Positions 1-30,091 of a DNA stretch of 64,000 nt are shown here, one piece after another. The DNA is taken from the NCBI GenBank assembly GCA_030699125.1, contig JAUYKM010000012.1:11159-75158 (forward strand), read 5' to 3'. The DNA is from Candidatus Daviesbacteria bacterium (GTDB lineage: Bacteria > Patescibacteriota > Microgenomatia > Daviesbacterales > UBA10151). The stretch's first letter is position 1. The number at the start of each line of letters is the position of its first letter. The notes under the pieces were generated by a model. It did not search any database. It was not told the DNA's origin and was given only the letters and a program-made list of their open reading frames with translations. A program made the position numbers and the translations under genes.

Positions 1-924
1 GGCAATCTTGCCACCTAGACTAGCCAATTTAACCGGGTTGTAGTGCCATTCAGCGGTGTAGCGTTGTCCGCAATAACCACAGTAGGCAAATCCCCGTAAC
101 AGAAAATCGTGGACTCTATGACGAATTAGAAAACTACGGTGCTTGGCTAACACATACTGGCAGGTATCGTAGAGCTCTTGGGTAATAATTGGGCGATGAT
201 TACCCATTTTTGACTCTCCGTGCCATCTGATGAGTCCGTAATAAAATGGGTTATTGAGGATATTGCAGATGACACTATGACCTAACCCGGTGCCATTTCT
301 TGAAAGAATATTTTTGTCTGCTAACCAATCCTGAACCTCAATAATAGAGTAACTACCCGTTGCATAGAGTTGAAATAATTCCTTGATAATGGGTGCGGTG
401 TAAGGATCAGGTTCACAAGTTTTTCGTTCTCTATCACCACCTACACTCCGATATCCAACCGGAGGAGGGGTGGGTTGCCAACCTTCCCGAAATTTTTGCA
501 TTAAAGCGTCACGGGTTCGTTGGCTGTTCACTTCACTTTCCCATTGAGCCACACTGGCAAAGATATTCGGCACCAAACTCGTTCCCTCACTCAAATCACC
601 TTCACAAACAGAGAGGAGTTTGATCCCCTTTTGCTTGAACTCACTGTAAAGTTTGGCAAAGTCACTGACATTTCTGGCAAAGCGGTCAATCTTATAGATG
701 ATAATTGCGTCAACTGGATGTTCCTCAAGTTCCTTCAGTAACTCCTGAAAAGCGGGCCTGTCGGTGGTTCGGGCACTTTTCCCATCCTCTTGGAATGTTC
801 GTTTAATATGGTAGGTGTGCATTTGGGCATATTCCATACACGCCCGTTTTTGATTGTCTATGGAGAAACCTTCGTGAGCCTGTTCTTCAGTGGATACTCG
901 GATATATAAATATGCGTTTTTCAT
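1..924 (-). CDS. Large serine recombinase (resolvase/invertase family). N-terminal ~308 aa only; the gene continues past the window start.
   Basis: Reverse-strand ATG at 924..922. Translation MKNAYLYIRVSTEEQAHEGFSIDNQKRACMEYAQ... carries the catalytic Ser in the YIRVSTEEQ resolvase motif. The ORF stays open to position 1. The + strand ORFs at 393..741 are antisense artefacts. Confidence 0.8.
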   Translation of the reverse strand, partial: MKNAYLYIRVSTEEQAHEGFSIDNQKRACMEYAQMHTYHIKRTFQEDGKSARTTDRPAFQELLKELEEHPVDAIIIYKIDRFARNVSDFAKLYSEFKQKGIKLLSVCEGDLSEGTSLVPNIFASVAQWESEVNSQRTRDALMQKFREGWQPTPPPVGYRSVGGDRERKTCEPDPYTAPIIKELFQLYATGSYSIIEVQDWLADKNILSRNGTGLGHSVICNILNNPFYYGLIRWHGESKMGNHRPIITQELYDTCQYVLAKHRSFLIRHRVHDFLLRGFAYCGYCGQRYTAEWHYNPVKLASLGGKIA

Positions 925-1087
925 AGTTATTCTTTCCTTATATTGATATTAAATTAGCCTGTGTGAGTTCTACTATCTTATACATATATTTTATTAGTTT
1001 TTGATTGAAATATCAAGGTAATCCAATCCTTATGGTTACTCTATAAACACTAGTTACTATATAGTCACTATGTGTTCCTATAAGTGA

Positions 1088-1477
1088 TTATGTATTGATT
1101 GCTTTATCTATTTGGTCTAAATCCTCATCTGTGATTTCTTCAGTTGTATTCCGGTTCTTCAACTTGTTTAGTATTTCGGATGAATACACGCCCTCTCTTA
1201 CCTTTTGATCCAATTCCGACAAAAATTGATTGATTACTCGCTCCTGGAGTTTGTGCCATTTGTCTTTATCATCAACAATAAAACACCGAAACCATTTATG
1301 TCCGAAGTCACCTTGACCGGTTGATGGTGGTTGCAACCAAAGATTGCCTTCTTTTGAGAGAGAAACACGGAAATATCTAACTTGAGCATCGTCCCAGATA
1401 AGTGTTGCTTGGGCAAGATAATTGCCACTCATCTTGAGATATATTTTTATATTTGCCTGGTCTAAGATTTCACTCAT
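1088..1477 (-). CDS. Hypothetical protein, 129 aa, island-associated.
   Basis: Clean ORF with no recognisable motif. Its start context ends in ...GAATAACT-ATG-like sequence (see finding). Confidence 0.5.
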   Translation of the reverse strand: MSEILDQANIKIYLKMSGNYLAQATLIWDDAQVRYFRVSLSKEGNLWLQPPSTGQGDFGHKWFRCFIVDDKDKWHKLQERVINQFLSELDQKVREGVYSSEILNKLKNRNTTEEITDEDLDQIDKAINT

Positions 1478-1529
1478 ACTTTATATTTATAGAAATTTTA
1501 TTTGTTATAACTTCTTTAATTTAGGTATA

Positions 1530-1700
1530 CTTGTGGTCACCTTAATGTCACCTATTTGTAATAAATGTAGCCTTGAAAGTTTTTGTCCGTTTTGTGTGGT
1601 CTTATTGTGGTCTAATTGTGTATTAAATAACCTCAAATAACTCAAGTCAGCCTTTCCCGGGTTTGTGTAGTCCAATTGTCGTCTATTTGTAGGTTTATTA
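1530..1700. repeat. Iteron-like cluster of 6 or more direct repeats TTGTG(G/T)NGTC(T/A) at ~10-12 bp spacing.
   Basis: Copies seen at ~1531, 1594, 1606, 1616, 1662 and 1675. AT-rich and non-coding; the two overlapping track ORFs are low-complexity. Confidence 0.45.
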
Positions 1701-1722
1701 GCCTTGATATCGGATTTCATAA

Positions 1723-1959
1723 TCATTGTCTGTAAATAAGCTGTTTTAGGTTTCTTTGGGCTGCAAAATATGAGTTGGGCTCCACACTTCCCCTAGACGA
1801 GAAGAAGTCGTTAGTTAACCTTTCTCTATCAGGGGTATCCTCAAAAACGAAAACCGCTCGTTTCGGATTGTCTTTTTTAACCATTAACAGAAGACAGGAC
1901 TTACTCAGAAGATATGCACACAGAGGGAAATTATCACTTTCAAAAACTTTATTTTTCAT
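1723..1959 (-). CDS. Hypothetical small protein, 78 aa.
   Basis: ORF with start context AAAAAATAACT-ATG. The upstream mini-ORF's TAA stop lies 2 nt before this ATG. Confidence 0.4.
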   Translation of the reverse strand: MKNKVFESDNFPLCAYLLSKSCLLLMVKKDNPKRAVFVFEDTPDRERLTNDFFSSRGSVEPNSYFAAQRNLKQLIYRQ

Positions 1960-1961
1960 AG

Positions 1962-2105
1962 TTATTTTTTCTTGTCAGGTTTGATAAAGCCGTAACTTGG
2001 TTTCTGGTAAATTATCTGGGTGAGGACGAGATTGACCCACTGTTCCGCTGCAGCGTCTATGATCTTAGAGGGATATTTCTGGTTATTCTTCTTATTACTA
2101 TTCAT
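1962..2105 (-). CDS. Possible small ORF (47 aa, MNSNKKNNQKYPSKIIDAAAEQWVNLV...).
   Basis: Not in the ORF track (under 60 aa). Start context GGATAACT-ATG. Its stop TAA overlaps the TAACTATG context of the next gene. Confidence 0.2.
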   Translation of the reverse strand: MNSNKKNNQKYPSKIIDAAAEQWVNLVLTQIIYQKPSYGFIKPDKKK

Positions 2106-2203
2106 AGTTATCCAAAACTGATCTTGTTGGCTTCAGTTTATGGCAACTATGACTAGAGCTCCGCTTCCGAATATGGAGTGAGTTTATTTCACACTACAGG
2201 GGA

Positions 2204-3025
2204 TCAAATGTCAGAGGAGTGCTGTATATCTTTATAGAAATCACTTGCAATTTTCCTGATGTTTGAGTCGTTGAGGTTATATTTTTCTTCATCTTGGTCG
2301 TAATTCTCATCAGTAAGAAAGTCTTTCATTATTTCATCAATAATCTGCGGTGCTTCTTTTCCGAGGGAATGGTGAAGGTAAATAACTAAATCTCTCCTGA
2401 ATAACCACGCCTTTCTGTTACGCCCAGTGGGAAAAGCGGTTAGGAATTGTTGAAGGAAGGAAATTATCTGCCAATTTTTTTCAATATACTCGTGAAGTTG
2501 GTTTTTGGTAGTGTCTTTATATAATCGTATATATGCTCCCTCAGGTAAATCTTCTTTATCTTTATGTAAAGAGATACGAGCTTTGTATTTCGGTTCATCA
2601 ATTGACAGATTGTTTTCCAGAGTAACCAATTCTCCAACAGGTAGGACCTCGCCAAAGTATAAATAGTTCAAGACAAACTCTCCGTATTTATCCGGATTGA
2701 GTTGATATTTTTGGCAAACCTTGGCTATTTGCTTATCCCACGGATCCACCGGGACTTTATCACTATGACCGTTAAACCATTCTTCATATTTGGGATCATC
2801 GTCTCTTGGTGTGGTATAGAAGTCCTCTGGCAATTGATATTTCTGCCTAAGATCTAGCACTGTTTTTCTAAATGAGCTTTCAGTTACTACCCGAATTATG
2901 TTGAAAATGACTTCTTGAAGATCATAAACTGTCTTATCTGGTTGCTTACTAACCCATTCTAGTAACACTACAAGGTCTTTTTTAACCTCAACAGGATATA
3001 TTCTTCTGGTTATATTTATACTCAT
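2204..3025 (-). CDS. Hypothetical protein, 273 aa, island-associated.
   Basis: Long clean ORF. Start context GGAATAACT-ATG. No recognisable catalytic motif. Confidence 0.6.
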   Translation of the reverse strand: MSINITRRIYPVEVKKDLVVLLEWVSKQPDKTVYDLQEVIFNIIRVVTESSFRKTVLDLRQKYQLPEDFYTTPRDDDPKYEEWFNGHSDKVPVDPWDKQIAKVCQKYQLNPDKYGEFVLNYLYFGEVLPVGELVTLENNLSIDEPKYKARISLHKDKEDLPEGAYIRLYKDTTKNQLHEYIEKNWQIISFLQQFLTAFPTGRNRKAWLFRRDLVIYLHHSLGKEAPQIIDEIMKDFLTDENYDQDEEKYNLNDSNIRKIASDFYKDIQHSSDI

Positions 3026-3086
3026 AGTTATTCCAGCTGATACATATTTTACATCTTAGATGTATAATTATGTATAAGTTATCAAG

Positions 3087-3278
3087 ATGACTATGCCAAA
3101 AGGTAAGCGACTATTGAAAATTAAAGAAGCAGCGGAGATGTTGGGGGTTAATCCCGAAACATTAAGGCGCTGGGACAATGACGAAATTCTCAAAGCCGTT
3201 AGGGTTGGTAGTCGGGGTGATAGACGCTATAAGGTTGAAGAAATTGAGAAGAAAATAAAACAAAGAAAGATAGGTTAG
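3087..3278 (+). CDS. Excisionase-family helix-turn-helix DNA-binding protein (Xis/AlpA-like or R-M controller-like).
   Basis: 63 aa. LKIKEAAEMLGVNPETLRRWDNDEILKAVRVGSRGDRRYKVEEI matches the excisionase-type HTH_17 pattern. Confidence 0.6.
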   Translation: MTMPKGKRLLKIKEAAEMLGVNPETLRRWDNDEILKAVRVGSRGDRRYKVEEIEKKIKQRKIG

Positions 3279-3315
3279 GCATCTAATATCGTAGACCTAA
3301 AAAATAACTATAAAT

Positions 3316-6033
3316 ATGGAAAAAATAAGTGAGTGGACAACCAGAAAAAAGATAATTGATGAGAGGCTCAAGGCATCTGGTTGGACAACTATTGTTCCCT
3401 ACAGCGAAGGTATGGATTTAACCAAACTCCATAATGCTGCAGTTGAGGAACTACCTACCGAACACGGTCCGGCTGATTATGTGCTTTTCCTTTTTGGTCA
3501 GCCTATTGCTATTGTTGAAGCAAAAAAATTGAGTCTTGGTCCACAGAATGTGCTTATCCAAGCCCAACGATATGCCAAGGGTCTAAGTCAAGGAATTGGC
3601 GACTTCAATGGCTACAAAGTTCCATTCATTTACTCCACTAATGGTGAGGTTTTCTGGTTTCAGGATCTAAGACCCACCAACAGCCGGTCAAGGCAAGTTA
3701 AGGCTTTCCACACGCCTCAAGGACTGTCGGAAATGGCAATCACCGATATAGCTTCCAAATCTTGGTGGTTTGGGCAAAACCCGATTGATAACGGAAAACT
3801 CCGCTATTATCAGAAAGAAGCCATTTCCTCAATTGAGTCGGCAATCCAAAACAACAAACGGGCAATGCTAGTGGCGATGGCAACCGGAACCGGGAAGACC
3901 TACACTATTGCCTCTCTTATTTACCGAATGCTCAAGTCCGGAACCAGTAAGCGGATATTATTTTTAGTTGACCGAAAGGCATTAGCGGCTCAAGCTGTGA
4001 TGGAGTTTGCGGCTTATGAAGCAGAGAGCGGACTCAAGTTCAATCAAATATATCAAGTGTATAGCCAGAAGTTTCAGAAAAGCTATCTAGAGGACGATGA
4101 TAAGTTTGACTTTACCGCATTACCTAATAGCTACCTAACCAATCCTGACGGTAACCAGGTTTTTGTTTATGTATGCACTATCCAACGAATGCAGATCAAT
4201 CTTTTTGGAAAAGAAGGAATGTTTTCTGAAACCGGAGAGTATGACCCCGAGGATGATGCCGATAAATTAGATATACCCATTCACGCCTTTGACACGATTA
4301 TTGCCGATGAGTGCCATCGTGGATATACCTCGCAAGAAGTAAGCAAGTGGAGAGAAGTATTAGACCACTTTGACGCTATCAAGATCGGTTTAACTGCTAC
4401 ACCAGCGGCTCATACTACCAGTTATTTCAAAGAAATTGTGTATCGGTATCCGTATGAGAAAGCGGTCAAAGATGGCTACTTGGTGGATTATGACGCAGTA
4501 AAAATTGAGTCTGGAATACGACTACAGGGAATTACAATCAAAGCGGGTGAAGAAGTAGAGGAAGTTGATCCCTCAACGGGGGTGCAACAACTTGACCTTT
4601 TGGAAGATGAGAAGCACTACGAAACCACCGAGCTTGAACGAGAAGTGACCTCACCGGATAGCAATCGCAAGATTATTCAAGAGTATGCTAAGTATGCCCT
4701 TGAGCAGGAAAAAGAATTAGGTAGGTTTCCCAAAACGCTTATCTTTGCCGACAATGATTTGCCACACACCTCTCATTCAGACCAGATAGTTGATATGTGC
4801 CGGGACATTTTTGGTCGGGGTGATGCGTTCGTCCAGAAGATAACCGGGTCGCCAACAGTAGATAGACCTCTTAGAAGGATTAAGGAGTTTAGAAACAGAC
4901 CGGAGCCTCTAATTGTGGTGACAGTAGATATGCTATCAACCGGAGTTGATATTCCGGCACTAGAAAACATTATTTTCCTTCGTCCAGTCAGATCAAGGAT
5001 ATTGTTTGAGCAAATGATGGGTCGTGGCACCCGTCTGTGTAAGTCATTTCCCAATGGCATTGGAACCGCACCCAAAACCCACTTTACGGTTTATGACTGC
5101 TTTGCCGGGACGCTCTTGGAGTCATTCAAAAATGAAACGAGTATTACCCAGTCAGCCCCACTCTCTCCTAACCGAACGATAAGGCAAATTATCCAAGAGT
5201 TAAGCGACAGCGTTGATGTGGATTACAACACGCGCTGCTTAGTCAAAAGATTTCAACGAATAAATAAAAACATAACTCAAGAAGGTAGAGATAGATTGGC
5301 AAAGTTTATACCCGATGGTGATTTAGGTCACTTTGCTAGTTCTCTTCCAGACCAGCTAGATAAGGAACGAGTATCAACCCTGAAACTGCTTAACAATGAT
5401 GAGTTGATTGACTTGCTGGAGAATTATCCAAGACCACCTAAGCAGTTTATCCGGGCAATTGAGTCGGAAGATGTAGTGACTTCCGAGTATCTTTTCCGCA
5501 CTACCGATGGTCGTGAACTAAAACCAGATGATTACATTTCCGCTTTTGAAAAGTTTGTCAAAGATAATCCCGAACACATTGAGGCAATCTCTATTATCTT
5601 AGAGAAACCAACCGGCTGGAACACCGAAGCACTCAAGGAATTGAGGGGTTCGCTCAAGACCTCACCGGAAGGATTTACCGAGGATAAATTGCGCAAAGCC
5701 TACAAGTATCCACTTGCCGATATTATTTCTATGATCAAACACGCTGGTAAAGAGGAACCAATCCTTTCGGCTCAAGAACGGGTAGATTTGGCTCTTGAGA
5801 AAGTAACCCAAGGTAAAGTGTTATCAACGCCACAACAAGAGTGGATAGGTCTAATCCGTAAGCACCTGATTGAGAACCTAACCATTGAAACCAGCGACTT
5901 TGACACAATGCCGATCTTCGTAAATAAGGGTGGTAATTTCAACCGTATCAACCAAGACTTTGACAACCAATTGGGGGTATTTATTAGTCAGTTAAATACG
6001 GCTATGCCGCAGGTATACGCTTATGCCAACTAA
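3316..6033 (+). CDS. hsdR: Type I restriction enzyme R subunit (HsdR).
   Basis: 905 aa. N-terminal PD-(D/E)xK nuclease region (ADYVLF...VEAKK). Walker A MATGTGKTYT. DEAH-like box DECHRG. Followed by hsdM and hsdS. Confidence 0.9.
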   Translation: MEKISEWTTRKKIIDERLKASGWTTIVPYSEGMDLTKLHNAAVEELPTEHGPADYVLFLFGQPIAIVEAKKLSLGPQNVLIQAQRYAKGLSQGIGDFNGYKVPFIYSTNGEVFWFQDLRPTNSRSRQVKAFHTPQGLSEMAITDIASKSWWFGQNPIDNGKLRYYQKEAISSIESAIQNNKRAMLVAMATGTGKTYTIASLIYRMLKSGTSKRILFLVDRKALAAQAVMEFAAYEAESGLKFNQIYQVYSQKFQKSYLEDDDKFDFTALPNSYLTNPDGNQVFVYVCTIQRMQINLFGKEGMFSETGEYDPEDDADKLDIPIHAFDTIIADECHRGYTSQEVSKWREVLDHFDAIKIGLTATPAAHTTSYFKEIVYRYPYEKAVKDGYLVDYDAVKIESGIRLQGITIKAGEEVEEVDPSTGVQQLDLLEDEKHYETTELEREVTSPDSNRKIIQEYAKYALEQEKELGRFPKTLIFADNDLPHTSHSDQIVDMCRDIFGRGDAFVQKITGSPTVDRPLRRIKEFRNRPEPLIVVTVDMLSTGVDIPALENIIFLRPVRSRILFEQMMGRGTRLCKSFPNGIGTAPKTHFTVYDCFAGTLLESFKNETSITQSAPLSPNRTIRQIIQELSDSVDVDYNTRCLVKRFQRINKNITQEGRDRLAKFIPDGDLGHFASSLPDQLDKERVSTLKLLNNDELIDLLENYPRPPKQFIRAIESEDVVTSEYLFRTTDGRELKPDDYISAFEKFVKDNPEHIEAISIILEKPTGWNTEALKELRGSLKTSPEGFTEDKLRKAYKYPLADIISMIKHAGKEEPILSAQERVDLALEKVTQGKVLSTPQQEWIGLIRKHLIENLTIETSDFDTMPIFVNKGGNFNRINQDFDNQLGVFISQLNTAMPQVYAYAN

Positions 6034-7459
6034 CACAATTACTAATACGGGAGTTGTAAATAAACTCTGGGGGTTTTGTCATATCCTTCGTCAAGATGGA
6101 ATGGATTATGGCGACTATGTAGAACAACTTACCTTCCTATTATTCCTCAAGATGGCAGAGGAAAAGAAAGTAGTTATTCCCAAAGAATACTCTTGGGCTG
6201 TATTGAAAACCAAGTCCGGCACGGATCTAACTGATTTCTATTCGGATCTGTTAAGGGGTATGGCAAAACAGGAAGGGTTATTAGGAGCTATATTTACTGA
6301 AGCCCTCTCAAAGTTCACCAAGCCAGTCAACCTCAAGAAATTGATTGATCTCATAGATGAAATAGACTGGTCAAGTTTGGGAGTAGATGTCAAAGCAGAA
6401 GCCTATGAAGGACTTCTTGAAAAGTCTGCCTCTGAAGGTAAAAAAGGTGCTGGACAATACTTTACTCCAAGAGTGCTTATCCGATCTATTGTTAGTTGTA
6501 TAAAACCAGACCCCCGGAAAATACCTGATTTCTCCATCTGTGATCCTGCCGCTGGGACTGGTGGATTTTTAGTTGCTGCTTATGATTGGTTTCTCAAGAC
6601 TGTGGGCGAGGCAGTAAATCGTGACGATTTGGAACGAATTAGGAAGAAAACTTACTTTGGCACAGAATTAGTTCCCCGTCCCCGTAGATTAGCTTTAATG
6701 AACCTCTACTTGCACGGAATTGAGTCGGAGATAAGACTTGGTGACTCCTTGTATGAACCGGATCGTGGTGATCGCTATAATGTGATCCTCACCAATCCTC
6801 CGTTTGGAACCAAGGGAGCCAATCAGATACCGGAAAGACAAGACTTTACCGTTGGCACCAGTAACAAGCAGCTAAACTTCGTTCAACAAATCCTGACCAC
6901 CTTGAAACCGGGTGGTAGGGCTGGTGTGGTGCTTCCTGACAATGTTTTATTTGCTGACCAAGCGGGTGAGATTTTCAAGATCCTGATGCAGGATTGTAAT
7001 TTGCATACCATTCTAAGGCTTCCTAGAGGCACATTTACGCCTTACAGCCAAGGAGTTAAGGCTAATGTCATCTTTTTCACCAAAGGTCTTCCGACTGAAA
7101 ATGTCTGGATCTATGATGCCAGAACCAATGTTCCGGGAATAACCAAAAAGGATAGACCGCTTACTCCCAAACATTTCGCTGAGTTTGAAAAATGCTATGG
7201 AGACGATCCAAATGGACTTTCTTCAAGAAAGGAAACAGATAGCAAAGAAGGCAGATGGAAAAAGTTTTCTCTGGAACAAGTTAAGGAAGCCAACTACAAG
7301 CTAGATGGCTTCAAGTGGATCAAGGATGAGGACTTGGACGATCCAGAAAACCTGCCAGAACCGGAAGAATTATTGACTGACGCAATGTCAGAACTCAAAG
7401 AGGCAAATACTGCCCTAGAAAAGATCTATGCAGAGCTCACAAACGGAACTGACAACTAG
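6023..7459 (+). CDS. hsdM: Type I R-M N6-adenine DNA methyltransferase subunit (HsdM).
   Basis: 478 aa. Motif I DPAAGTGGFL and motif IV NPPFG. Overlaps hsdR by 11 nt. Confidence 0.9.
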   Translation: MPTNTITNTGVVNKLWGFCHILRQDGMDYGDYVEQLTFLLFLKMAEEKKVVIPKEYSWAVLKTKSGTDLTDFYSDLLRGMAKQEGLLGAIFTEALSKFTKPVNLKKLIDLIDEIDWSSLGVDVKAEAYEGLLEKSASEGKKGAGQYFTPRVLIRSIVSCIKPDPRKIPDFSICDPAAGTGGFLVAAYDWFLKTVGEAVNRDDLERIRKKTYFGTELVPRPRRLALMNLYLHGIESEIRLGDSLYEPDRGDRYNVILTNPPFGTKGANQIPERQDFTVGTSNKQLNFVQQILTTLKPGGRAGVVLPDNVLFADQAGEIFKILMQDCNLHTILRLPRGTFTPYSQGVKANVIFFTKGLPTENVWIYDARTNVPGITKKDRPLTPKHFAEFEKCYGDDPNGLSSRKETDSKEGRWKKFSLEQVKEANYKLDGFKWIKDEDLDDPENLPEPEELLTDAMSELKEANTALEKIYAELTNGTDN

Positions 7460-8762
7460 AACATTATCAGCTTTATTATCAGATATTGAAGCTGGGACTC
7501 GTCCCCGTGGTGGTGTGAGAGGTATATCCTCAGGTATTCCTAGCTTGGGTGGTGAACACCTAAACTCTCTCGGTGGGTTTGATTTTAGCTCAATAAAATA
7601 TGTGCCTGAAAACTTTGCATTGTCAATGAACAGAGGTAAGGTTAGATTAAATGATATTTTAGTAGTGAAAGATGGTGCGACAACTGGAAAAGTGTCCTTT
7701 GTAAACAGCGACTTTCCTTACAAAGAAGCTGTGATAAATGAGCACATTTTTTTATTAAGAACGAAACCAGATATTCTTCCTAAGTATCTTTTTTGGTTCT
7801 TGTGGAGTTCGTTGGGGCAAAGTGAAATTATTAGCAACTTTCAAGGTTCTGCACAGGGAGGAATAAATAGAACTTTTGTTGATGGAGTTGAAGTTCCAGT
7901 CTGTGATATTGATGAACAAAGAAAAATAGTGGTGAAGGTTGATGAATTATTTCCACAGGTTTCTCAAACATCAGTAAATATCCAAAAAGCAAAACTACTT
8001 ATTCAAAAGTTTCGCCAATCGGTTCTCTCCGCTGCCGTCACTGGGAAATTGACTGAGGGGTGGAGAGAAAAACACCTAAATGAAAACGGCAAGTTAGAGC
8101 TTGAAAAGTTATTTGGGACAATAAACACCGGTAATCTTGAAGATATTCCAGACACTTGGGGTCAAATTAGTTCATCAAGGGTATTTTCGTATGTCACGAG
8201 TGGATCAAGAGGCTGGGCAAGGTATTATTCGGACAAGGGCAATCTATTCTTCAGGGTGGGTAATTTGGAACATAATTCAATAAGCCTAAAACTAGATGAT
8301 GTTAAATATGTTAAGTTGCCAGATAAGACTGAAGGGAGACGCACAAAGTTACAACCAAATGACCTTCTCATATCAATTACAGCTGACATTGGAAGGATCG
8401 CTCTAATATCAAGTGATATTGATGAGGGATATATAAATCAACACATAGCTTTAGCAAGACCGGTAACTTCAATTTATGCACCCTTCCTTGCTTGGTATTT
8501 AGCCACATATCAAGGTGGGTGGAGCCAGTTTGTAGACAAGCAGCGTGGAGCAACAAAAGTTGGATTAGGATTAGATGATATTTCAAGTATTACCATTCCA
8601 TTTCCACCAATTGCAGAACAAAAAGAGATTGTTTCACAAATAGATAGATATTTAGGAATAGCACACCAAGTAGAACTTCAGATTGAAAACACTGAAAGAA
8701 AAGTAAATAAACTCACCCAATCAATCCTAGCTAAGGCATTCCGGGGAGAATTGGTAAACTAG
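7428..8762 (+). CDS. hsdS: Type I R-M specificity subunit (HsdS), two target-recognition domains.
   Basis: 444 aa. Overlaps the hsdM 3' end. Bipartite layout with repeated conserved helices, typical of HsdS. Confidence 0.8.
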   Translation: MQSSQTELTTRTLSALLSDIEAGTRPRGGVRGISSGIPSLGGEHLNSLGGFDFSSIKYVPENFALSMNRGKVRLNDILVVKDGATTGKVSFVNSDFPYKEAVINEHIFLLRTKPDILPKYLFWFLWSSLGQSEIISNFQGSAQGGINRTFVDGVEVPVCDIDEQRKIVVKVDELFPQVSQTSVNIQKAKLLIQKFRQSVLSAAVTGKLTEGWREKHLNENGKLELEKLFGTINTGNLEDIPDTWGQISSSRVFSYVTSGSRGWARYYSDKGNLFFRVGNLEHNSISLKLDDVKYVKLPDKTEGRRTKLQPNDLLISITADIGRIALISSDIDEGYINQHIALARPVTSIYAPFLAWYLATYQGGWSQFVDKQRGATKVGLGLDDISSITIPFPPIAEQKEIVSQIDRYLGIAHQVELQIENTERKVNKLTQSILAKAFRGELVN

Positions 8763-8763
8763 T

Positions 8764-9918
8764 ATGACTGCATTTAGGAATGGTGAATATCGCAAGGTGA
8801 CCGGATATTTGCGACAACATTTGAACACTAGAAATATACAGGGGCTATCTACATCAGGCTCTGTTGATGACGAGTTGTGGATTTTATTGGAGTATTATTC
8901 GGAAGTAGAAGATGTTGGATTGAAGTTTTTACTTGATAACGGTATTAAGAATAAAACCACGAGAAAGACTACCTATAAGCACTTTCAAGCATATGTCAGA
9001 CAAGCAAAGAATTACTATAATTCAGCTAAGGTTTTAGCACCTCGCTCAGCGGGATTGCTGTATTATTATTGTTTCCTTAATTTGGCAAAGGCAGCTTTAG
9101 TGGTAAGAGATCCGTCAATTGGAGGTAAGAAAATCACACACGGTTTGAGCTACAAGATTAATAGCGATCCGCATTTTATTAAACAAAGTGTAAACATCTT
9201 GAATGACGGAGTATTTCCAAAACTCTACGCTTTGTATTTCGGCCAGAGCGTAAAACAGATGAGTCTTACTATTCCAGCATTACTTAACTACTGCACAGAT
9301 ATAGGGTATCAATGTCAAATGGCTGGGATACATCAAACGAAGATAATTTATTCCTATTATGCCCATTGTGTTGATAAAACAAAAAAAACAGGGTGGGGTT
9401 TAGTAGCTATTCCTCAGGCTTCGTTGCTGTTGAAATACCATAAGAGCATAAAAAGTTTTATTGATACTTTTGAAAAAATAGAACTTCCACAATTAAGCTG
9501 CCGTGAATTATTTGACCTTGATGCATTTCAACAAAGCCATTATTCGTTTTTCCAAAGTAGGGAAGAAAAAAAGTGGATTAGCGACAACATACCTTCGGAA
9601 CCCGAGGTGAGAAGTGAAACATTAGCGGCACTGAGTAGAGTATTCCAAACTTACTACTTTGCAAAAGGCGCAGACTTTGCAATTTCTCTTCCTTACCTTC
9701 CCAATAAACAAGTAAGGATGGATGAAACAATTGCCATCTATCTGATAATGTTTTATTTATCAAACTTAGTAAGATATAACCCAAGGTATCTAGAGGGTCT
9801 ATTAAGTAAAAAGGAGTCTTGGCTAATTGATAGTTTCGTAAGATCCTGTTCGGTAACATTTCTTAGAGCATTTATATCTAGGATAATTGGCACAGATTAC
9901 ATAATTGAGGCTAGATAA
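8764..9918 (+). CDS. Unknown 384-aa protein translationally coupled to hsdS. Candidate R-M-linked accessory or defence gene.
   Basis: ATG lies 1 nt after the hsdS stop codon. No catalytic motif recognised, apart from an Rx5H-type motif RKTTYKH near the N-terminus. Confidence 0.6.
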   Translation: MTAFRNGEYRKVTGYLRQHLNTRNIQGLSTSGSVDDELWILLEYYSEVEDVGLKFLLDNGIKNKTTRKTTYKHFQAYVRQAKNYYNSAKVLAPRSAGLLYYYCFLNLAKAALVVRDPSIGGKKITHGLSYKINSDPHFIKQSVNILNDGVFPKLYALYFGQSVKQMSLTIPALLNYCTDIGYQCQMAGIHQTKIIYSYYAHCVDKTKKTGWGLVAIPQASLLLKYHKSIKSFIDTFEKIELPQLSCRELFDLDAFQQSHYSFFQSREEKKWISDNIPSEPEVRSETLAALSRVFQTYYFAKGADFAISLPYLPNKQVRMDETIAIYLIMFYLSNLVRYNPRYLEGLLSKKESWLIDSFVRSCSVTFLRAFISRIIGTDYIIEAR

Positions 9919-10129
9919 TTTATGTTAGTTACGGTGTTGCCAAATGTTGTCCATACTGCAATTTCTTGATTAATAACCATCTTTCTCGCAACTCTCCGAT
10001 AAAACTAGCGTTCTGAAAAACCTCTAAGATCTTGGGGAAATCCTTCAGTATGAGGTGTCTAGGCTTGGGGAGCCAATCGGCACTTAATATACCCAAAATG
10101 AGCCTCTTAATAAATCATGCATTCACTAT

Positions 10130-10149
10130 TCGTATCATTTATGATACGA
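10130..10149. promoter_or_regulatory. Perfect 9-bp inverted repeat TCGTATCAT-TT-ATGATACGA. A third half-site ATGATACGA lies at ~10163. Putative operator.
   Basis: The palindrome overlaps the start region of the HTH-Fic gene. Confidence 0.4.
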
Positions 10150-10158
10150 TTAATAAAT

Positions 10159-11205
10159 ATGAATGATACGAACCTTAATGTCCGCCAAAAACAGATCTTG
10201 TCAATCTTAAAACAGCAAAGTAGTGTTGCCCGCCAAGGATTAGCACAGCAAATATCTGCTAAAAAAGGAATTTCGAGAATAACAATTATTAGAGATTTAA
10301 ACGATTTAATCAACGATAAACTGGTCAAAGTAGAAGGAAAAGGGAAAAATACTAGATATAGTTTGCTTGAAACCAATCCTTTGTTAAACTATCTTGATCT
10401 TGACGGTTATTTTTTTGAAGAAGACAGGATAATTAAAAAAAAATTTGATATTTCCGTCTTTAATCACTTAAACAACTTATATTCTCCGGGTGAAATTAGA
10501 TTGTGGGAAAAGAGCAAGAAAGTTTTTAAAGAGGCTCAAGAAAAACTAGATCCATCAATCTATAAAAGGGAACTCGAAAGATTTGTTATTGAACTATCTT
10601 GGAAATCATCACAAATTGAGGGAAACACTTACAGCTTAATCGAAACGGAAACCTTGATTAAGCAGAATATTAAAGCGAGGGGGCATTCTAACGAAGAAGC
10701 TGTGATGATTTTAAATCACAGAGATGCATTTAATTCGATTATTAAGAATAAAGAGGATTTTAAGAAAATAGATTTTTCTGATGTTGTTCAGTTACACAAC
10801 ATTCTTACAAAAGGACTTATTACATCTGGGGTAAGATCGCAAAAAGTGAGAATTTCTGGAACACAATATGAGCCCTTATCAGACAAACATGAGCTTGAAA
10901 AGATATTAAGACAATTAATCGGACATGTGAATAAAACCGAATATCCACCGGAAAAAGCATTAATACTTGCGATAATGATTGCTTATCTTCAACCATTTGC
11001 TGATGGGAATAAGAGGACTTCGCGTATGCTTTCAAACGCTGTCCTCGTGGCTTTCGATTTCCCCCCTTTGTCTTATCGAAATATTAATGTTAATGAATAT
11101 AGAAGCGTAATGATTATTTTTTATGAAACTAACAATTTGTTTAATTTCAAACGACTTTATTTGAAACAGCTGCAGTATGTAATTGAAAATTATTTTCAAT
11201 TTTAG
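10159..11205 (+). CDS. Fic/Doc-family protein with an N-terminal winged-HTH and a degenerate Fic motif (QPFADGNKRTSR instead of HPFx[DE]GNGRxxR).
   Basis: The track starts it at 10117. An in-frame ATG at 10159 (MNDTNLNV...) lies after the operator palindrome. The motif codons caa-cca-ttt-gct-gat-ggg-aat-aag-agg were read directly. Confidence 0.7.
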   Translation: MNDTNLNVRQKQILSILKQQSSVARQGLAQQISAKKGISRITIIRDLNDLINDKLVKVEGKGKNTRYSLLETNPLLNYLDLDGYFFEEDRIIKKKFDISVFNHLNNLYSPGEIRLWEKSKKVFKEAQEKLDPSIYKRELERFVIELSWKSSQIEGNTYSLIETETLIKQNIKARGHSNEEAVMILNHRDAFNSIIKNKEDFKKIDFSDVVQLHNILTKGLITSGVRSQKVRISGTQYEPLSDKHELEKILRQLIGHVNKTEYPPEKALILAIMIAYLQPFADGNKRTSRMLSNAVLVAFDFPPLSYRNINVNEYRSVMIIFYETNNLFNFKRLYLKQLQYVIENYFQF

Positions 11206-11286
11206 ATAATTTAATCGCAAACTTTGTTTATATTAGAGTTACGATTCTCGAGCCAAGTAGATTTTAGATTGTTAGAACAAGCTAAT

Positions 11287-11673
11287 TTAAACCCATTTAT
11301 TAAGTATTCCAGGTTCTGCTTTTACTGAAAATATTTTAAATGTATGTGACCTGATTTCTCCTTTATATTTCTCACCGATTGCTTGAGTATGAGCTATTTC
11401 TTTTAATTTGACTTTATCTACTCCTAATTCTTCTTGAAGTTCTCTTTTTGCAGCCTGAAGATAGCTTTCACCTGGATCGACATGTCCGGCAGAGGAGTGA
11501 TCTAACCTACCGTCATCCCTTAGTTGAATTAATATTTGTCCTTTATCATTAGTCAAAAAAACTACAGCAGTCCTGTGAATTAGTCCTTTTTGGTGAGCCT
11601 CGGCTCTTGTTACCTCCCCTAAAACATTATCTTGATCATCAACCCAAATAACCTTATCCTCTGAAGTTTTCAT
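11287..11673 (-). CDS. NUDIX hydrolase.
   Basis: Nudix box GHVDPGESYLQAAKRELQEELG. Confidence 0.8.
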   Translation of the reverse strand: MKTSEDKVIWVDDQDNVLGEVTRAEAHQKGLIHRTAVVFLTNDKGQILIQLRDDGRLDHSSAGHVDPGESYLQAAKRELQEELGVDKVKLKEIAHTQAIGEKYKGEIRSHTFKIFSVKAEPGILNKWV

Positions 11674-12421: not shown

Positions 12422-13726
12422 TTGATAGTTTCTATGGAAATAATAGTTATACTGCTGCTTATTCTTTTAAATGGTATACTTGCCATGGTGGAGATTGCAG
12501 TTGTCTCTGCCAGAAAATCAAGGCTACAACATCTGGCTCAGGAGGGTAATAAAAACGCCCAAGCTGTATTAGAGCTTAAAGATTCTCCTAATAGATTTTT
12601 ATCAACAGTTCAAATAGGCATAACTCTTATTGGAATACTTGCTGGTGCATTTGGAGGGGCAACAATTGCAGAGAATTTAGCTTCATATTTTGAAACCATA
12701 CCATCTATTGCTCCCTATAGTGAAGCAATTGGCATTGCCATTGTGGTTGCTGCGATCACTTATCTCTCTTTAATTATTGGAGAACTAGTACCAAAACGTT
12801 TAGGACTTAGTAATCCTGAACTTATCGCCTCTTTTGCTGCCCGTCCCATGCGCGCACTTTCAAAAATAAGTGCACCACTAGTGTATCTTTTAAGCCTCTC
12901 CACAGATTTTATTCTACAAGTGTTTCAGATAAAGCCAAAAGAAGAAGCAGTCAGTGTGGAAGAAATAAGGATGCTTATTCGGGAAGGGGCAAGGGTGGGT
13001 GTTTTTGGGACGGTAGAAAAAGATATTGTTGAACGCACCCTTCAGTTAGGGGACAAGAAAGTGAATACGCTTATGATCCCTCGGAAGGAAATTGTCTGGC
13101 TTGATATAGACTCCTCATTCAAAGCCATACGTTCAAGAGTTGCCAAACATCCCCATTCTCATTTTCCGGTATGCCGAGGTAGTCTTGATAAAGTTCTTGG
13201 GGTGGTGATGACTGAAGATATACTGGCAAATTTCTTAATAGAAGAAAAAATTGATTTGAAAAAATTTCTTCATAAGCCGCTTTTTGTACCAGAGACAACA
13301 GATGGGTTGAAAGTCTTAGAATTATTTAAAAAATCCGGTATTCACATGGCTTTAGTTGTTGATGAATATGGTAATGTTCAAGGTCTTATTTCCATGACTG
13401 ATATTCTGGAAGCAATAGTGGGAGATATACCAACAATTGATGAATTGGAAGAGCAGGAGATCGTTAAGAGGGGTGATGGTTCCTTCTTAGTGGATGGTCT
13501 TGTGCCGATTGATGAATTGAAAGAATATTTCCATATCAGCAGACTTCCCGGAGAAAAGTCTGGGAATTACCATACTGTTGGTGGTTTTGTGATGTATAAA
13601 CTTGGCCATATTCCTATTGCTGGTGATAGCTTTGAATTGGAATCATTAAAACTTGAAGTTTTAGATATGGATGGCAACAGAGTTGATAAAATTTTAATTA
13701 TTCCATCAAAGAAACATTTAGCATAA
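12422..13726 (+). CDS. HlyC/CorC (CNNM) family transporter: DUF21 TM domain, CBS pair, CorC_HlyC.
   Basis: 434 aa. N-terminal multi-TM region, central CBS region, C-terminal transporter-associated domain. Confidence 0.8.
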   Translation: MIVSMEIIVILLLILLNGILAMVEIAVVSARKSRLQHLAQEGNKNAQAVLELKDSPNRFLSTVQIGITLIGILAGAFGGATIAENLASYFETIPSIAPYSEAIGIAIVVAAITYLSLIIGELVPKRLGLSNPELIASFAARPMRALSKISAPLVYLLSLSTDFILQVFQIKPKEEAVSVEEIRMLIREGARVGVFGTVEKDIVERTLQLGDKKVNTLMIPRKEIVWLDIDSSFKAIRSRVAKHPHSHFPVCRGSLDKVLGVVMTEDILANFLIEEKIDLKKFLHKPLFVPETTDGLKVLELFKKSGIHMALVVDEYGNVQGLISMTDILEAIVGDIPTIDELEEQEIVKRGDGSFLVDGLVPIDELKEYFHISRLPGEKSGNYHTVGGFVMYKLGHIPIAGDSFELESLKLEVLDMDGNRVDKILIIPSKKHLA

Positions 13727-19053: not shown

Positions 19054-20115
19054 CTAAATCTTGCGATAACGACTACTTCTACCCATTCCCACACTCTCGA
19101 TTTTCTTTAACTGAAGTAGTTTAGCAAGTGATTGTCTGACTGTGGCATAAGCAATCTTAGTGGCCGCAGCTATTTGGAGATTGGTAGCTTCATCAACCGC
19201 CTGTATATATTGCCATACTGCAATCTGTTTATTGGATAAAATATCCTCAATTCTCTCTTGGGACATCAAGCTGATAGCTTCTTTAGATTGCGCTAGGATA
19301 ATTTCCAAAAAGAATTCAAGCCAGGGAGTAATATTTCCAGTTCCTTTTTTGAAGGTTTTTTGGCTTTTTCTTAAAGCCAGGTAATATTGCGGCTTCTGAT
19401 CCTCAATCAGTTTCTCATGAGAGACATAAGGCATGTATAGATAACCTGCCTGAAGAAGGAGCAAATTAGTGAGAATTCTAGATAAACGGCCGTTGCCATC
19501 TTTAAAAGGATGGATATTTAAAAACTCCACTAAAAAATTACCGATAATAATTAACGGATGAGATAACTTAGCATCGAGAGCATATTTGGTCCATTCCACC
19601 AATTCCTGCATTTGTTTAGGGGTTAAATAGGCTGGGGTGGTGTCAAAGATCACTCCAATTCTTCTACCTTGCTCATCCACCATTTCAATTTTATTATTAG
19701 TACTTTTATACTTGCCTCTGTGATCCTGATCTTTCTTAACGTACTTTAAAAGCTCCTGATGCAAATGTTTAACGGTATTCTCACTGAATCTAATGTGTTC
19801 CCAAGCATCAAAGATTATTTGGAGGAGTTCAAAATAACCCTGAACCTCTTGTTTTTCTCTATCTGCAAATTTCTGCATGGCAATACCCTGCATTAAATCT
19901 TCTACATCCTCATCCGATAGCCTTGCTCCCTCAATCCTGGTAGAAGCACCGGTAGAGGTAATTAATACTGATCTTTTAAGTCTCCCTAATAGTTGGGGGT
20001 TTAAATTAGTCCCTTGCGTCCAGCGACCTTTTAACTCGTCAATCTGAGCAATTTTAAGAAATACTGCTGGAGGCAGTTGAGCTAACCTACTTTCAAATTT
20101 GCGATTTTTAACCAT
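19054..20115 (-). CDS. Fic-family protein (canonical HPFKDGNGRLSR) with a C-terminal winged-helix.
   Basis: 353 aa. Canonical Fic motif and a C-terminal wHTH-like region. Confidence 0.85.
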   Translation of the reverse strand: MVKNRKFESRLAQLPPAVFLKIAQIDELKGRWTQGTNLNPQLLGRLKRSVLITSTGASTRIEGARLSDEDVEDLMQGIAMQKFADREKQEVQGYFELLQIIFDAWEHIRFSENTVKHLHQELLKYVKKDQDHRGKYKSTNNKIEMVDEQGRRIGVIFDTTPAYLTPKQMQELVEWTKYALDAKLSHPLIIIGNFLVEFLNIHPFKDGNGRLSRILTNLLLLQAGYLYMPYVSHEKLIEDQKPQYYLALRKSQKTFKKGTGNITPWLEFFLEIILAQSKEAISLMSQERIEDILSNKQIAVWQYIQAVDEATNLQIAAATKIAYATVRQSLAKLLQLKKIESVGMGRSSRYRKI

Positions 20116-30016: not shown

Positions 30017-30021
30017 AGAGT

Positions 30022-30091
30022 AGGCCCGGAAGGAATCGAACCCTCGTAAAGTGTGTATAAGACACTCGCTCTACCATTGAGCTACGGGCCT
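30022..30091 (-). tRNA. tRNA with anticodon UAU (Ile, AUA-decoding).
   Basis: Reverse complement folds as AGGCCCG-TA-GCTC-AATGGTA-GAGC-G-AGTGT-CTTATAC-ACACT-TTAC-GAGGG-TTCGATT-CCTTC-CGGGCCT-A. The 7-bp acceptor stem and 5-bp anticodon stem are all Watson-Crick; the 5-bp T-stem has one G-U. Confidence 0.75.

Follow-up and report, generated by a model that had tools for sequence, protein, structure and literature searches.

The left part of the window, by which we mean the whole stretch of 64,000 nucleotides of Candidatus Daviesbacteria DNA analysed here, carries a large serine recombinase gene and a Type I restriction-modification (R-M) system. This raises the question whether these genes form a mobile defence island, as an earlier note had proposed, where such an island begins and ends, and which of its genes could serve defence. 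The analysis of this CPR chromosome places a roughly 10.6-kb island (~10.64 kb) where a tRNA gene ends. The most satisfactory explanation as a whole, which we consider quite probable, is a small, non-conjugative integrative island composed of a backbone and a cargo, with a YaaC-family protein as accessory of the R-M system and a neighbouring Fic-like gene that belongs to the host. As an element it is ordinary, and the one lead worth following is the coupled YaaC-family gene.

Integration at a tRNA gene

The features that define the ends of the island are as follows.

About −572 to −566 (~570 nt left of the window, Logan contig L001): attL, in the 3′ end of the tRNA gene
<1–924, minus strand: large serine recombinase, N-terminal 308 codons (Pfam Resolvase 3.1e-36, Recombinase 8.1e-14, start of the zinc ribbon Zn_ribbon_recom)
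10067–10073: attR core GGGGAGC (7 nt), repeating the tRNA 3′ end of attL; right end of the island (alignments A3 and A4)
10074–10095: attB host flank CAATCGGCACTTAATATACCC, the sequence that probably came after tRNA-Asn before the insertion
10117–11205, plus strand: HTH-Fic/Doc-like gene (Fic 4.2e-12; SoFic 1.6e-20; motif QPFADGNKRTSR)

The recombinase, correctly described before as cut by the window edge, is identified by its Pfam domains, by its match to the phrog_95 integrase (1.2e-107) and by the motif YIRVSTEEQ, read from the sequence, which contains the catalytic serine. In contig L001 the gene extends to the left of the window, encodes at least 506 amino acids, and has its 3′ end inside the tRNA 3′ end. 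Both ends of the island were placed by comparison, using the attL/attR core and the host flank common to the related island L079, which carries an analogous 12-nt repeat, GCGGAGCCAGTT, at either end. The flank comparison of GGAGCCAATCGGCACTTAATATACC with attR of L079 displays matches at 23 of 25 positions. The host flank beyond the island is also denoted GGCACTTAATATACC. Of the target tRNA 30 nt are available in the present genome, and likeness to L079 and L082 together with the common downstream flank suggests that it is most likely tRNA-Asn. No clear dyad symmetry was seen in the reconstructed att sites. We hypothesize that the island entered the 3′ end of this tRNA gene through a crossover, made by the recombinase within the shared core GGGGAGC, and that it supplied the sequence now following the tRNA.

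The HTH-Fic gene had been counted as an island member. Since it lies on the host side of attR, it is placed outside the island and presumably belongs to the host. Its catalytic motif QPFADGNKRTSR is indeed substituted relative to the canonical HxFx(D/E)GNGRxxR, but a degenerate protein is not what the homologues indicate: wherever the motif is readable among the 150 best representative homologues, it is the variant Q-x-F-x-D-G-N-K-R-x-x-R. This comparison points to a conserved variant subfamily and not to decay.

The layout is repeated in other CPR contigs, with the recombinase gene overlapping a convergent tRNA-Asn (L079, L082) or tRNA-Gln (L120) gene. Related islands keep the backbone genes (L120 and L121), and the cargo varies: the present island, L082 and the fragment L121 carry a Type I system, and L079 has a DpnII-type enzyme. 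The view of a mobile defence island thus gains support from the recombinase gene reading into the tRNA 3′ end, from the shared layout, and from the core and host flank that fix the ends. We infer current mobility from comparison alone, because neither an empty attB site nor an excised circle or circular junction was observed. This is also what one would expect of a fixed, immobile remnant or of a decayed prophage or satellite that is no longer active, and a recombinase-less YaaC region downstream of tRNA-Asn in contig L081 indicates that such islands can decay. However, every ORF of the present island is intact, both att junctions are still recognisable, and a PHROG search of the island proteins matched no phage structural or packaging family. 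Moreover, related backbones carry different cargo, which indicates recent exchange. An inactive remnant therefore appears unlikely.

Backbone genes, repeats and regulatory DNA

The left half of the island comprises the following features, and the first gene of the rightward operon is listed with them.

1040–1075: operator-like element separating the recombinase gene from the 129-aa gene, with two TAGTnACTA palindromes
1088–1477, minus strand: 129-aa backbone protein, immediately upstream of the recombinase gene
1478–1722: repeat region, TTGTGGTC-like units starting at 1531, 1594, 1605, 1665 and 1676
1505–1726, minus strand: orphan 73-aa ORF overlapping the repeats
1723–1959, minus strand: DUF5659 protein of 78 aa (PF18903, 4.2e-12), backbone
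1962–2105, minus strand: conserved small protein of 47 aa, backbone
2204–3025, minus strand: 273-aa backbone protein, no family assignment
3051–3063: palindrome ACATCT-T-AGATGT, read from the sequence, within the 61 nt of promoter region that separate the divergent 273-aa and HTH_17 genes
3087–3278, plus strand: HTH_17/MerR-type DNA-binding protein of 63 aa (PF12728, 4.7e-10), opening the rightward cargo operon

Judged by their recurrence, the leftward genes (those for the 273-aa, 47-aa, DUF5659 and 129-aa proteins and the recombinase) behave as a conserved island backbone and may constitute a module for maintenance and mobility. The earlier note had listed four ORFs without assignment on this strand. 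The 129-aa and 273-aa proteins remain without a family, but one of the four is a DUF5659 protein, also present in L082, L120 and L121; the 73-aa ORF is probably non-coding; and the conserved 47-aa gene, which shares the motif AAEQWVNL with homologous, identically placed ORFs of L121 (51 aa) and L120, had been overlooked. The 129-aa protein has no match in Pfam, PHROG or NCBIfam, and has a homologue of 42% identity at the equivalent position in L120; we consider it a candidate directionality factor. For the 273-aa protein only 6 homologues were found, and both of those with readable contigs (L120 and L121) belong to the same backbone. Its AlphaFold model is poor (pLDDT 53) and a PDB search gave no match; its C-terminal helices may perhaps form an HTH. 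The ACATCT-T-AGATGT palindrome is a candidate operator, and 2.2 tandem copies of ATGTATAAGTT lie beside it at 3060–3082 (TRF).

The double palindrome TAGTnACTA is a feature absent from the earlier note. Its copies begin at 1051 and 1062, a spacing of 11 bp (TRF period 11), just upstream of a promoter-like site on the minus strand (1016–988), found in a promoter scan in which the number of sites was not above chance. In other loci, 1.4 Mb in all, the palindrome has a background frequency of 0.007 per kb. About 50 nt of this region are nearly identical to positions 4062–4110 of L120 (alignment A6), the flanking proteins being only 41–42% identical, which shows this operator-like DNA to be conserved between both islands. 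As a candidate operator, it probably holds expression of the recombinase low.

The repeats had been described as helically phased iterons in an AT-rich non-coding stretch next to the recombinase gene. Their actual place is between the 129-aa gene and the DUF5659 gene. They are commoner than chance: at no more than one mismatch TTGTGGTC occurs 4 times in 245 nt, as compared to 0.34 in shuffled sequences, and none of 2000 shuffles reaches 4. The stretch also contains two 52-nt direct repeats (1582–1633 and 1653–1704). It is probably non-coding, since the sole match of the 73-aa ORF among 5.8 billion protein clusters is the ORF itself. No Rfam match or RNA structure signal was found in it. The 11-nt phasing is confined to two clusters, 1594/1605 and 1665/1676 (TRF period 11); the clusters being 63 and 71 nt apart, it is not kept across them.

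Such non-random, AT-rich repeats, together with several backbone proteins that have no assigned function, might suggest replication-origin iterons or a parC-like centromere, and an excised island that exists as a plasmid-like circle. We regard this as very improbable: no island protein matches a Rep, ParA or ParB family in Pfam, PHROG or NCBIfam, the phasing is lost between clusters, and the related island L120 lacks the repeat region altogether, its DUF5659 gene abutting the gene of the 129-aa homologue. Most likely, albeit with low confidence, the repeats are a lineage-specific protein-binding array in the regulatory region that precedes the genes for the 129-aa protein and the recombinase. 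A second question of island mobility concerns the HTH_17 protein, of which the earlier note had correctly recognised the HTH, whereas the label of an excisionase reflects family-level resemblance only. As an excisionase or recombination directionality factor of the island, and not a regulator of the cargo operon, it would fit its PF12728 domain, its match to phrog_66 ("excisionase and transcriptional regulator") and the presence of a homologue in every island of this type irrespective of cargo (at the equivalent position in L079, L082, L120 and L121). Yet its score for TIGR01764, although near the threshold, is below the cut-off (25.7 versus 28.8 bits). Serine recombinases do not need an Xis-type protein, and for the large ones the known directionality factors target the recombinase and are not Xis-type DNA benders. 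Furthermore, the gene overlaps or abuts the first cargo gene; the L080 copy directly precedes a Dam-like methyltransferase gene on a contig with no visible recombinase; and the L121 copy is 95% identical, as is HsdR (95%), and does not follow the backbone (61–77%). A role in excision is thus doubtful. The protein also matches the PADLOC model mad1 (1.2e-10).

The restriction-modification cargo and YaaC

The remainder of the rightward operon consists of four genes.

3316–6033, plus strand: hsdR, Type I restriction subunit (ResIII, Helicase_C, HSDR_N, EcoEI_R_C; REase_I 2.2e-93)
6023–7459, plus strand: hsdM, Type I methyltransferase (PADLOC MTase_I 2e-170; HsdM_N, N6_Mtase)
7428–8762, plus strand: hsdS, specificity subunit with two target-recognition domains (Specificity_I 1.6e-73; Methylase_S)
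8764–9918, plus strand: yaaC-family gene, 384 aa (PF14175, 1.9e-34)

We propose that this operon represents the cargo, in which hsdR-hsdM-hsdS and the tightly coupled yaaC come after the gene for a small HTH_17 regulator. The Type I genes overlap by 11 nt and 32 nt, as had been seen before, and are intact with catalytic motifs present, including, as read from the sequence, the DECH box of hsdR and the motifs NPPF and DPAAGTGGF of hsdM. HsdR is of the EcoAI/EcoEI-like type, its matches to PRK11448 and restrict_EcoAI both being under the equivalog cut-offs. The entire cassette from HTH_17 to yaaC is found again in a second CPR island, L082, the recombinase of which is only 28% identical. Identity to the counterparts there is 73% for HsdR and 80% for HsdM but only 27% for HsdS, as expected if both systems recognise different sequences. 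The system would restrict incoming unmethylated DNA and may also stabilise the island through post-segregational killing, an established property of R-M systems.

The start codon of the 384-aa gene (8764) does lie 1 nt past the hsdS stop. The gene, previously left without a family, encodes a YaaC protein (PF14175, 119.9 bits at a cut-off of 27). In L082 the gap is 3 nt and the YaaC proteins share 56% identity. AlphaFold yields a confident model (pLDDT 94.4), for which Foldseek found nothing of similar structure in PDB or BFVD. The strictly conserved polar residues Q80, Y101, N106, H126, R337 and Y338 could form an active site. PADLOC gave no match and no report on the function of PF14175 was found in the literature, hence a role in defence is assigned by guilt by association. 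Close homologues adjoin restriction genes of DpnII or HinfI type (Type II). Ten loci with a close homologue were examined, and in 6 of them YaaC stands alone, with no R-M gene beside it. Among bona fide distant members, one in a Flavobacteriaceae locus comes immediately after hsdR, one in a Klebsiella locus follows hsdR and ygjP, and one on a Helicobacter contig is found within a Type I locus. Other neighbours include PrrC, LmuB, 2TM/SLATT effectors, Schlafen/AlbA_2, the YobI ATPase, integrases and transposases. That the island's unassigned genes could act in defence or anti-defence is a reasonable but unproven proposal. YaaC agrees with it, being met repeatedly next to genes of R-M and other defence systems; the leftward genes, which behave like a conserved backbone, agree with it less well.

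One may ask whether YaaC is wired into the Type I system, either as a PrrC-like guard, that is, a latent effector held inactive in the R-M complex and freed when a phage anti-restriction protein disables this complex, or as a modulator of restriction during establishment in a new host. The gap of 1–3 nt kept in two islands with unrelated backbones, the occurrence of YaaC after hsdR or inside Type I loci of three further phyla, PrrC/AAA_13-type genes at equivalent places in some such loci, and the conserved polar residues would agree with this. Most YaaC genes, however, have no Type I neighbour, close homologues stand alone or pair with Type II enzymes, and the protein resembles neither PrrC, RloC nor any PADLOC model, so we judge such wiring improbable. 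Less far-fetched, but still rather unlikely, is that YaaC is unrelated to defence, being hitch-hiking cargo or a housekeeping-type protein whose place after hsdS is a historical accident spread with the cassette. Its neighbourhoods are very heterogeneous, including methionine synthase and thymidylate kinase, it is missing from the defence models searched with PADLOC, and viral contigs almost never carry it. The Bacillus subtilis yaaC belongs to the core genome, beside guaB, and this namesake may be of housekeeping type. Against this stand the tight junction with hsdS kept at 56% protein identity, and the repeated, independent occurrence of YaaC in distant phyla beside R-M genes of differing types and families and other defence or mobile genes. 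We therefore regard YaaC as a candidate defence gene, and hypothesize that it is an accessory protein which acts autonomously in association with defence and is expressed together with the R-M system, without being an obligate subunit of it.

Ends of the island and its recombinase

The left part of the window holds leftward backbone genes, a rightward restriction cargo and, further right, a gene for a Fic protein:

<1-924, minus strand, large serine recombinase
1088-1477, minus strand, 129-aa ORF
1478-1722, repeat-containing stretch
1723-1959, minus strand, DUF5659
1962-2105, minus strand, 47-aa ORF
2204-3025, minus strand, 273-aa ORF
3087-3278, plus strand, HTH_17
3316-6033, plus strand, hsdR
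6023-7459, plus strand, hsdM
7428-8762, plus strand, hsdS
8764-9918, plus strand, 384-aa gene (YaaC)
10117-11205, plus strand, HTH-Fic

The N-terminal resolvase domain of the recombinase matches PF00239 with 125 bits (cut-off 23.3), and the motif YIRVSTEEQ, including the nucleophilic serine, is directly visible in the sequence. The recombinase domain PF07508 scores 52 bits, the Zn ribbon begins at the window edge, and phrog_95 matches residues 1-471 (1.2e-107). With catalytic, Recombinase and Zn-ribbon regions all represented, the gene encodes a large serine recombinase of the integrase type. The identical Logan contig L001 reaches 596 nt further left than the window, and its translation extends the recombinase to at least 506 aa, in keeping with the lengths of about 450-700 aa that characterise this type. 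This contig starts with GGTTCGTGGTTCGAATCCACGCGGGGGAGC, which is shaped like the T-arm and acceptor 3' strand of a tRNA, and the recombinase ORF runs into this tRNA 3' end on the opposite strand. Two contigs with related loci (L079 and L082) carry a complete tRNA-Asn(GTT) that overlaps the recombinase gene by 42 nt. The tRNA fragment here aligns to their tRNA-Asn 3' ends, and the changes in the T-stem are compensatory (alignment A4). Because only 30 nt of the tRNA are available for comparison, we strongly infer, rather than read, that the gene at the left junction (attL) is tRNA-Asn. On contig L120 (4179-5765; recombinase 41% identical) the related island sits at tRNA-Gln(TTG) instead of tRNA-Asn, with an overlap of 15 nt between recombinase ORF and tRNA 3' end.

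The right junction (attR) was located by comparison with L079, in which the last tRNA bases plus CCAGTT (GCGGAGCCAGTT, 3006-3017) are repeated at 12485-12496. The bases that follow the second copy, GGCACTTAATATACC, are also found in the window at 10079-10093, beginning 5 nt past GGGGAGC (10067-10073), which itself repeats the end of the tRNA of this genome. The stretch GGAGCCAATCGGCACTTAATATACC agrees with L079 at 23 of 25 positions and falls between yaaC and the Fic gene, precisely the place expected for attR. We therefore assign positions 10067-10073 to attR and about -572..-566 to attL, so that the island measures 10,639 bp; the flank conserved beyond attR is host sequence that once followed tRNA-Asn. 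A tRNA-end junction at attL in L001, together with a core repeated at 10067-10073 and then the host flank shared with L079, points to an integrated element. The earlier note had read the region as a mobile defence island, and this reading stands, now with delimited ends. Its inclusion of the Fic gene does not, since that gene lies beyond attR as placed here, on the host side.

Integration by recombination of attP with attB at a short core is predicted from the comparative junctions, the core being GGGGAGC here and GCGGAGCCAGTT in L079. The empty attB is reconstructed as ...CCACGCGGGGGAGCCAATCGGCACTTAATATACC and the circular attP as ...GGTGTCTAGGCTTGGGGAGCTGAAGGTCTGTTATT, both predicted, and their dyad symmetry is weak. 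The tRNA-end repeat comprises 7 nt only and was recognised via L079; no long repeat of the tRNA 3' end was found in the window (23-mer with at most 3 mismatches, then k-mers), which fits the short cores that serine recombinases typically use. The loci compared include no empty site, and the host flank has no matches in viral contigs. Of the 35 loci that a PepE-based synteny scan of metagenome contigs yielded, none had a tRNA or common neighbours. A reading of the region as a prophage was dropped, as no phage structural families were matched. L001 itself ends at a small palindrome, TCGTATCATTTATGATACGA (10726-10745, corresponding to window 10130-10149), within the start of the Fic gene, which is probably an assembly-graph break and not a biological boundary.

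Conserved backbone, exchangeable cargo and regulatory DNA

Related islands consist of a conserved backbone and swappable cargo. Homologues of the 273-aa protein (53%), the 47-aa protein, DUF5659 (49%), the 129-aa protein (42%) and the recombinase occur in the same order on L120, where a divergent HTH_17 gene (73%) is followed by unrelated cargo. On the short fragment L121, HsdR and HTH_17 are 95% identical to those in the window, the 273-aa protein is 77% and DUF5659 61% identical, and the islands are therefore mosaics. L082 carries the cargo HTH_17 (64%), HsdR (73%), HsdM (80%), HsdS (27%) and YaaC (56%) with a recombinase that is only 28% identical and with different small genes; its divergent HsdS probably confers another specificity. 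The cargo of L079 comprises HTH_17, a DpnII/MboI-type endonuclease, an 83-aa gene, YaaC (63%) and further genes. Thus, relatives at tRNA-Asn or tRNA-Gln bear differing restriction cargo. Contig L081 (852-5003) displays tRNA-Asn followed by a 284-aa gene, a secreted SNase-like nuclease, a 121-aa gene and a YaaC gene (59%), with the recombinase absent, and may represent a decayed island at the tRNA-Asn site.

The 273-aa protein has six homologues only among 5.8 billion protein clusters, and both of those on readable contigs (L120, L121) lie within this backbone. Structure prediction had been proposed in the earlier note for the 129-, 273- and 384-aa proteins. The AlphaFold model of the 273-aa protein is of low confidence (pLDDT 53), and the protein has no PDB match; the model of the 384-aa protein is described in the following section. 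A literature search on DUF5659 returned no papers.

The cargo here encodes a Type I system: nuclease N-terminal and SF2 helicase motifs are present in HsdR, N6-adenine methyltransferase motifs in HsdM, and two target recognition domains in HsdS. Among the catalytic motifs, DECH in HsdR and NPPF and DPAAGTGGF in HsdM are seen directly. HsdR contains an EcoEI_R_C domain and matches PRK11448 and restrict_EcoAI best, with scores (606 and 292) below the NCBIfam equivalog cut-offs (729 and 550). The protein encoded upstream of hsdR belongs to the HTH_17 family (40 bits, cut-off 27). Its earlier designation as excisionase-like is not retained, as the excisionase model TIGR01764 reaches 25.7 bits against a curated cut-off of 28.8. 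A MADS system (mad1-mad8) was rejected: PADLOC returned only mad1-, mad2- and mad5-like matches, which are better explained by the HTH_17, MTase_I and Specificity_I models, and the other mad genes are absent.

Between the 129-aa and recombinase genes, about 50 nt are near-identical to L120, with flanking proteins about 41% identical. In both islands this stretch holds two TAGTnACTA palindromes 11 bp apart, a pair that resembles an operator for control of the recombinase. Another palindrome, ACATCT-T-AGATGT (ACATCTTAGATGT, 3051-3063), lies in the divergent promoter region. Four backbone gene starts share the context (A)ATAACTATG, namely recombinase, DUF5659, 47-aa and 273-aa (917-936, 1952-1971, 2099-2111 and 3018-3032), and the start context of hsdR is the related ATAACTATAAATATG (3303-3317); such recurrence has the appearance of a translation-start or regulatory signature common to the island.

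The repeats of the type TTGTGGTC that the earlier note had reported are real: in 245 nt, 4 matches with no more than one mismatch occur where 0.34 would be expected, and 0 of 2000 shuffles reached 4. Tandem Repeats Finder (TRF) reports an 11-nt period at 1595-1620, and two 52-nt direct repeats in the region are 71% identical. Their interpretation as iterons of a plasmid-type origin, however, was not borne out: Rep or Par families were not detected among the island proteins (Pfam, PHROG, NCBIfam), the 11-nt phasing is confined to within clusters, and L120 lacks the stretch, its DUF5659 gene adjoining that for the 129-aa homologue. A 73-aa ORF overlapping the repeats matches only itself in databases, and as RNA the region has no Rfam match and a folding z-score of +0.76. 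We consider the repeats a putative lineage-specific protein-binding array.

YaaC as a candidate defence gene

The 384-aa gene, earlier listed as unknown, is a member of PF14175 (YaaC), though uncharacterised; residues 63-372 match with 119.9 bits against a gathering score of 27 (1.9e-34), and the identical protein is named 'YaaC family protein' in the source record. It has no match in PADLOC v2.0 (E <= 0.01), PHROGs or NCBIfam, and we found no paper reporting a function. An AlphaFold model computed from 36 sequences is of high confidence (pLDDT 94.4, pTM 0.93). For this fold, Foldseek gave no match with E under 0.1 among solved structures (PDB) or predicted viral ones (BFVD), and PDB sequences searched with a profile likewise gave none. 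Invariant residues are Q80, L98, Y101, N106, L107, H126, G127, R337, Y338 and P340.

The genomic surroundings of YaaC are heterogeneous up- and downstream over 53 representative genomes, which rules out a fixed operon partner. Among close homologues (at least 50% identity), restriction-modification genes are adjacent in 4 of 10 loci (the window, L082, L079 and L080) and not in the other 6. More distantly, YaaC lies immediately behind hsdR in a Flavobacteriaceae locus, behind hsdR and ygjP in a Klebsiella locus, and within a Type I locus of a Helicobacter contig, adjoining AAA_23, DUF3800 and YobI-ATPase genes; all three proteins score above the Pfam cut-off. PrrC, LmuB and 2TM/SLATT effectors are also among the neighbours, as are methyltransferases, integrases and transposases. 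The pattern is one of an autonomous gene of defence and mobile regions that often rides with restriction systems, and not of a restriction-modification subunit. The closest homologue (76%, L078 4285-7677) has no restriction-modification neighbour; a 111-aa gene and a reverse transcriptase (RVT_1) follow about 600 nt downstream.

A possible model for YaaC is offered by PrrC (EcoprrI) and RloC, anticodon nucleases within Type I loci, which are likewise extra genes co-transcribed with a Type I system. YaaC differs in having neither an ABC-ATPase nor an anticodon-nuclease domain, in lacking sequence similarity to these proteins, and in often occurring without any Type I system. Its assignment as an anticodon nuclease of this type was rejected, as neither PrrC nor AAA_13 is matched (Pfam, PADLOC) and the fold has no PDB relative. 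YaaC may have a PrrC-like guard role. One could hypothesize that YaaC has a so far unrecognised role against phages or plasmids together with restriction-modification, such as that of a PrrC-like back-up effector triggered once restriction is disabled, and that it is swapped by CPR bacteria on tRNA-targeting serine-recombinase islands; we regard this as rather unlikely. The most novel of the readings that survive, a long shot, takes YaaC for a new restriction-associated immune protein. Should YaaC prove to act in defence or as an accessory of restriction, the known immune repertoire would gain a new single-gene module; the family is widespread, has no described function, and recurs beside restriction genes in several phyla.

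Relation to known elements and adjacent host genes

The island is a recombinase-borne restriction-modification island, a type already known. Staphylococcal cassette chromosome (SCC) elements are small, non-conjugative cassettes with swappable cargo that can include Type I restriction-modification genes, and they resemble the present island in size, in the use of a large serine recombinase (CcrAB/CcrC) and in being inserted at the 3' terminus of a conserved housekeeping gene. Among NCBIfam models, CcrB matches the recombinase best (4.2e-44), with 151 bits far under the equivalog cut-off of 900. In contrast to SCC, the target here is a tRNA gene and not rlmH, there is one recombinase gene, the backbone genes (273-aa, 47-aa, DUF5659, 129-aa) are unrelated, and the host belongs to the CPR. 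Genomic and defence islands with tyrosine integrases (P4-like and similar) share the tRNA 3' end as target, a short tRNA-end repeat at the far junction, the integrase gene beside the tRNA, and defence cargo. However, the Resolvase, Recombinase and Zn ribbon domains mark the recombinase here as a serine enzyme, the core is only 7-12 nt, and the recombinase ORF is convergent with the tRNA gene, which it overlaps. The restriction genes resemble the Type IB systems EcoAI/EcoEI in the EcoEI_R_C domain of HsdR and in canonical HsdM and HsdS, and differ in the order R-M-S with HTH_17 upstream and yaaC downstream and in scores under the equivalog cut-offs. Mobile elements and the exchange of defence genes in CPR (Patescibacteria) are poorly described, and the island is here precisely delimited, with att core, backbone and a conserved putative operator.

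The HTH-Fic protein beyond attR has a Fic fold (PF02661, 47.2 bits against 24), and its motif QPFADGNKRTSR departs from HxFx(D/E)GNGRxxR by Gln for the catalytic His and Lys for the second Gly. The earlier note had called this motif degenerate. Homologues number 3,068 representatives, 191 of them at E <= 1e-30, and every readable motif among the best 150 reads Q-x-F-x-D-G-N-K-R-x-x-R; the protein therefore belongs to a conserved variant subfamily with Doc-like NKR and a fused DeoR-like HTH. Compared with Doc (HxFx[D/N][A/G]NKR) and Fic (HxFx[D/E]GNGRxxR), the fold, the NKR and an inhibitory motif of the SxxxE[G/N] type (SSQIEGN) are alike, whereas Gln replaces the catalytic His across a large subfamily, the HTH is N-terminal, and the gene lies outside the island. 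Such conservation suggests a non-canonical or non-catalytic function and makes the subfamily a minor lead in its own right on non-canonical Fic/Doc proteins. A second Fic gene (19054-20115, minus strand), a distant relative of the first, has the canonical HPFKDGNGRLSR, the inhibitory motif STRIEGA and a C-terminal HTH.

Two minor observations concern other genes of the window. A Nudix/IPP-isomerase-like gene (11287-11673, minus strand) encodes 128 aa only, which cover roughly the first 100 of the 180-185 positions in the model, and may be truncated at the C-terminus. At 30020-30091 (minus strand), ARAGORN reports a tRNA-Ile with anticodon TAT, which is uncommon among bacteria, where AUA is usually read by a lysidine-modified CAT tRNA.
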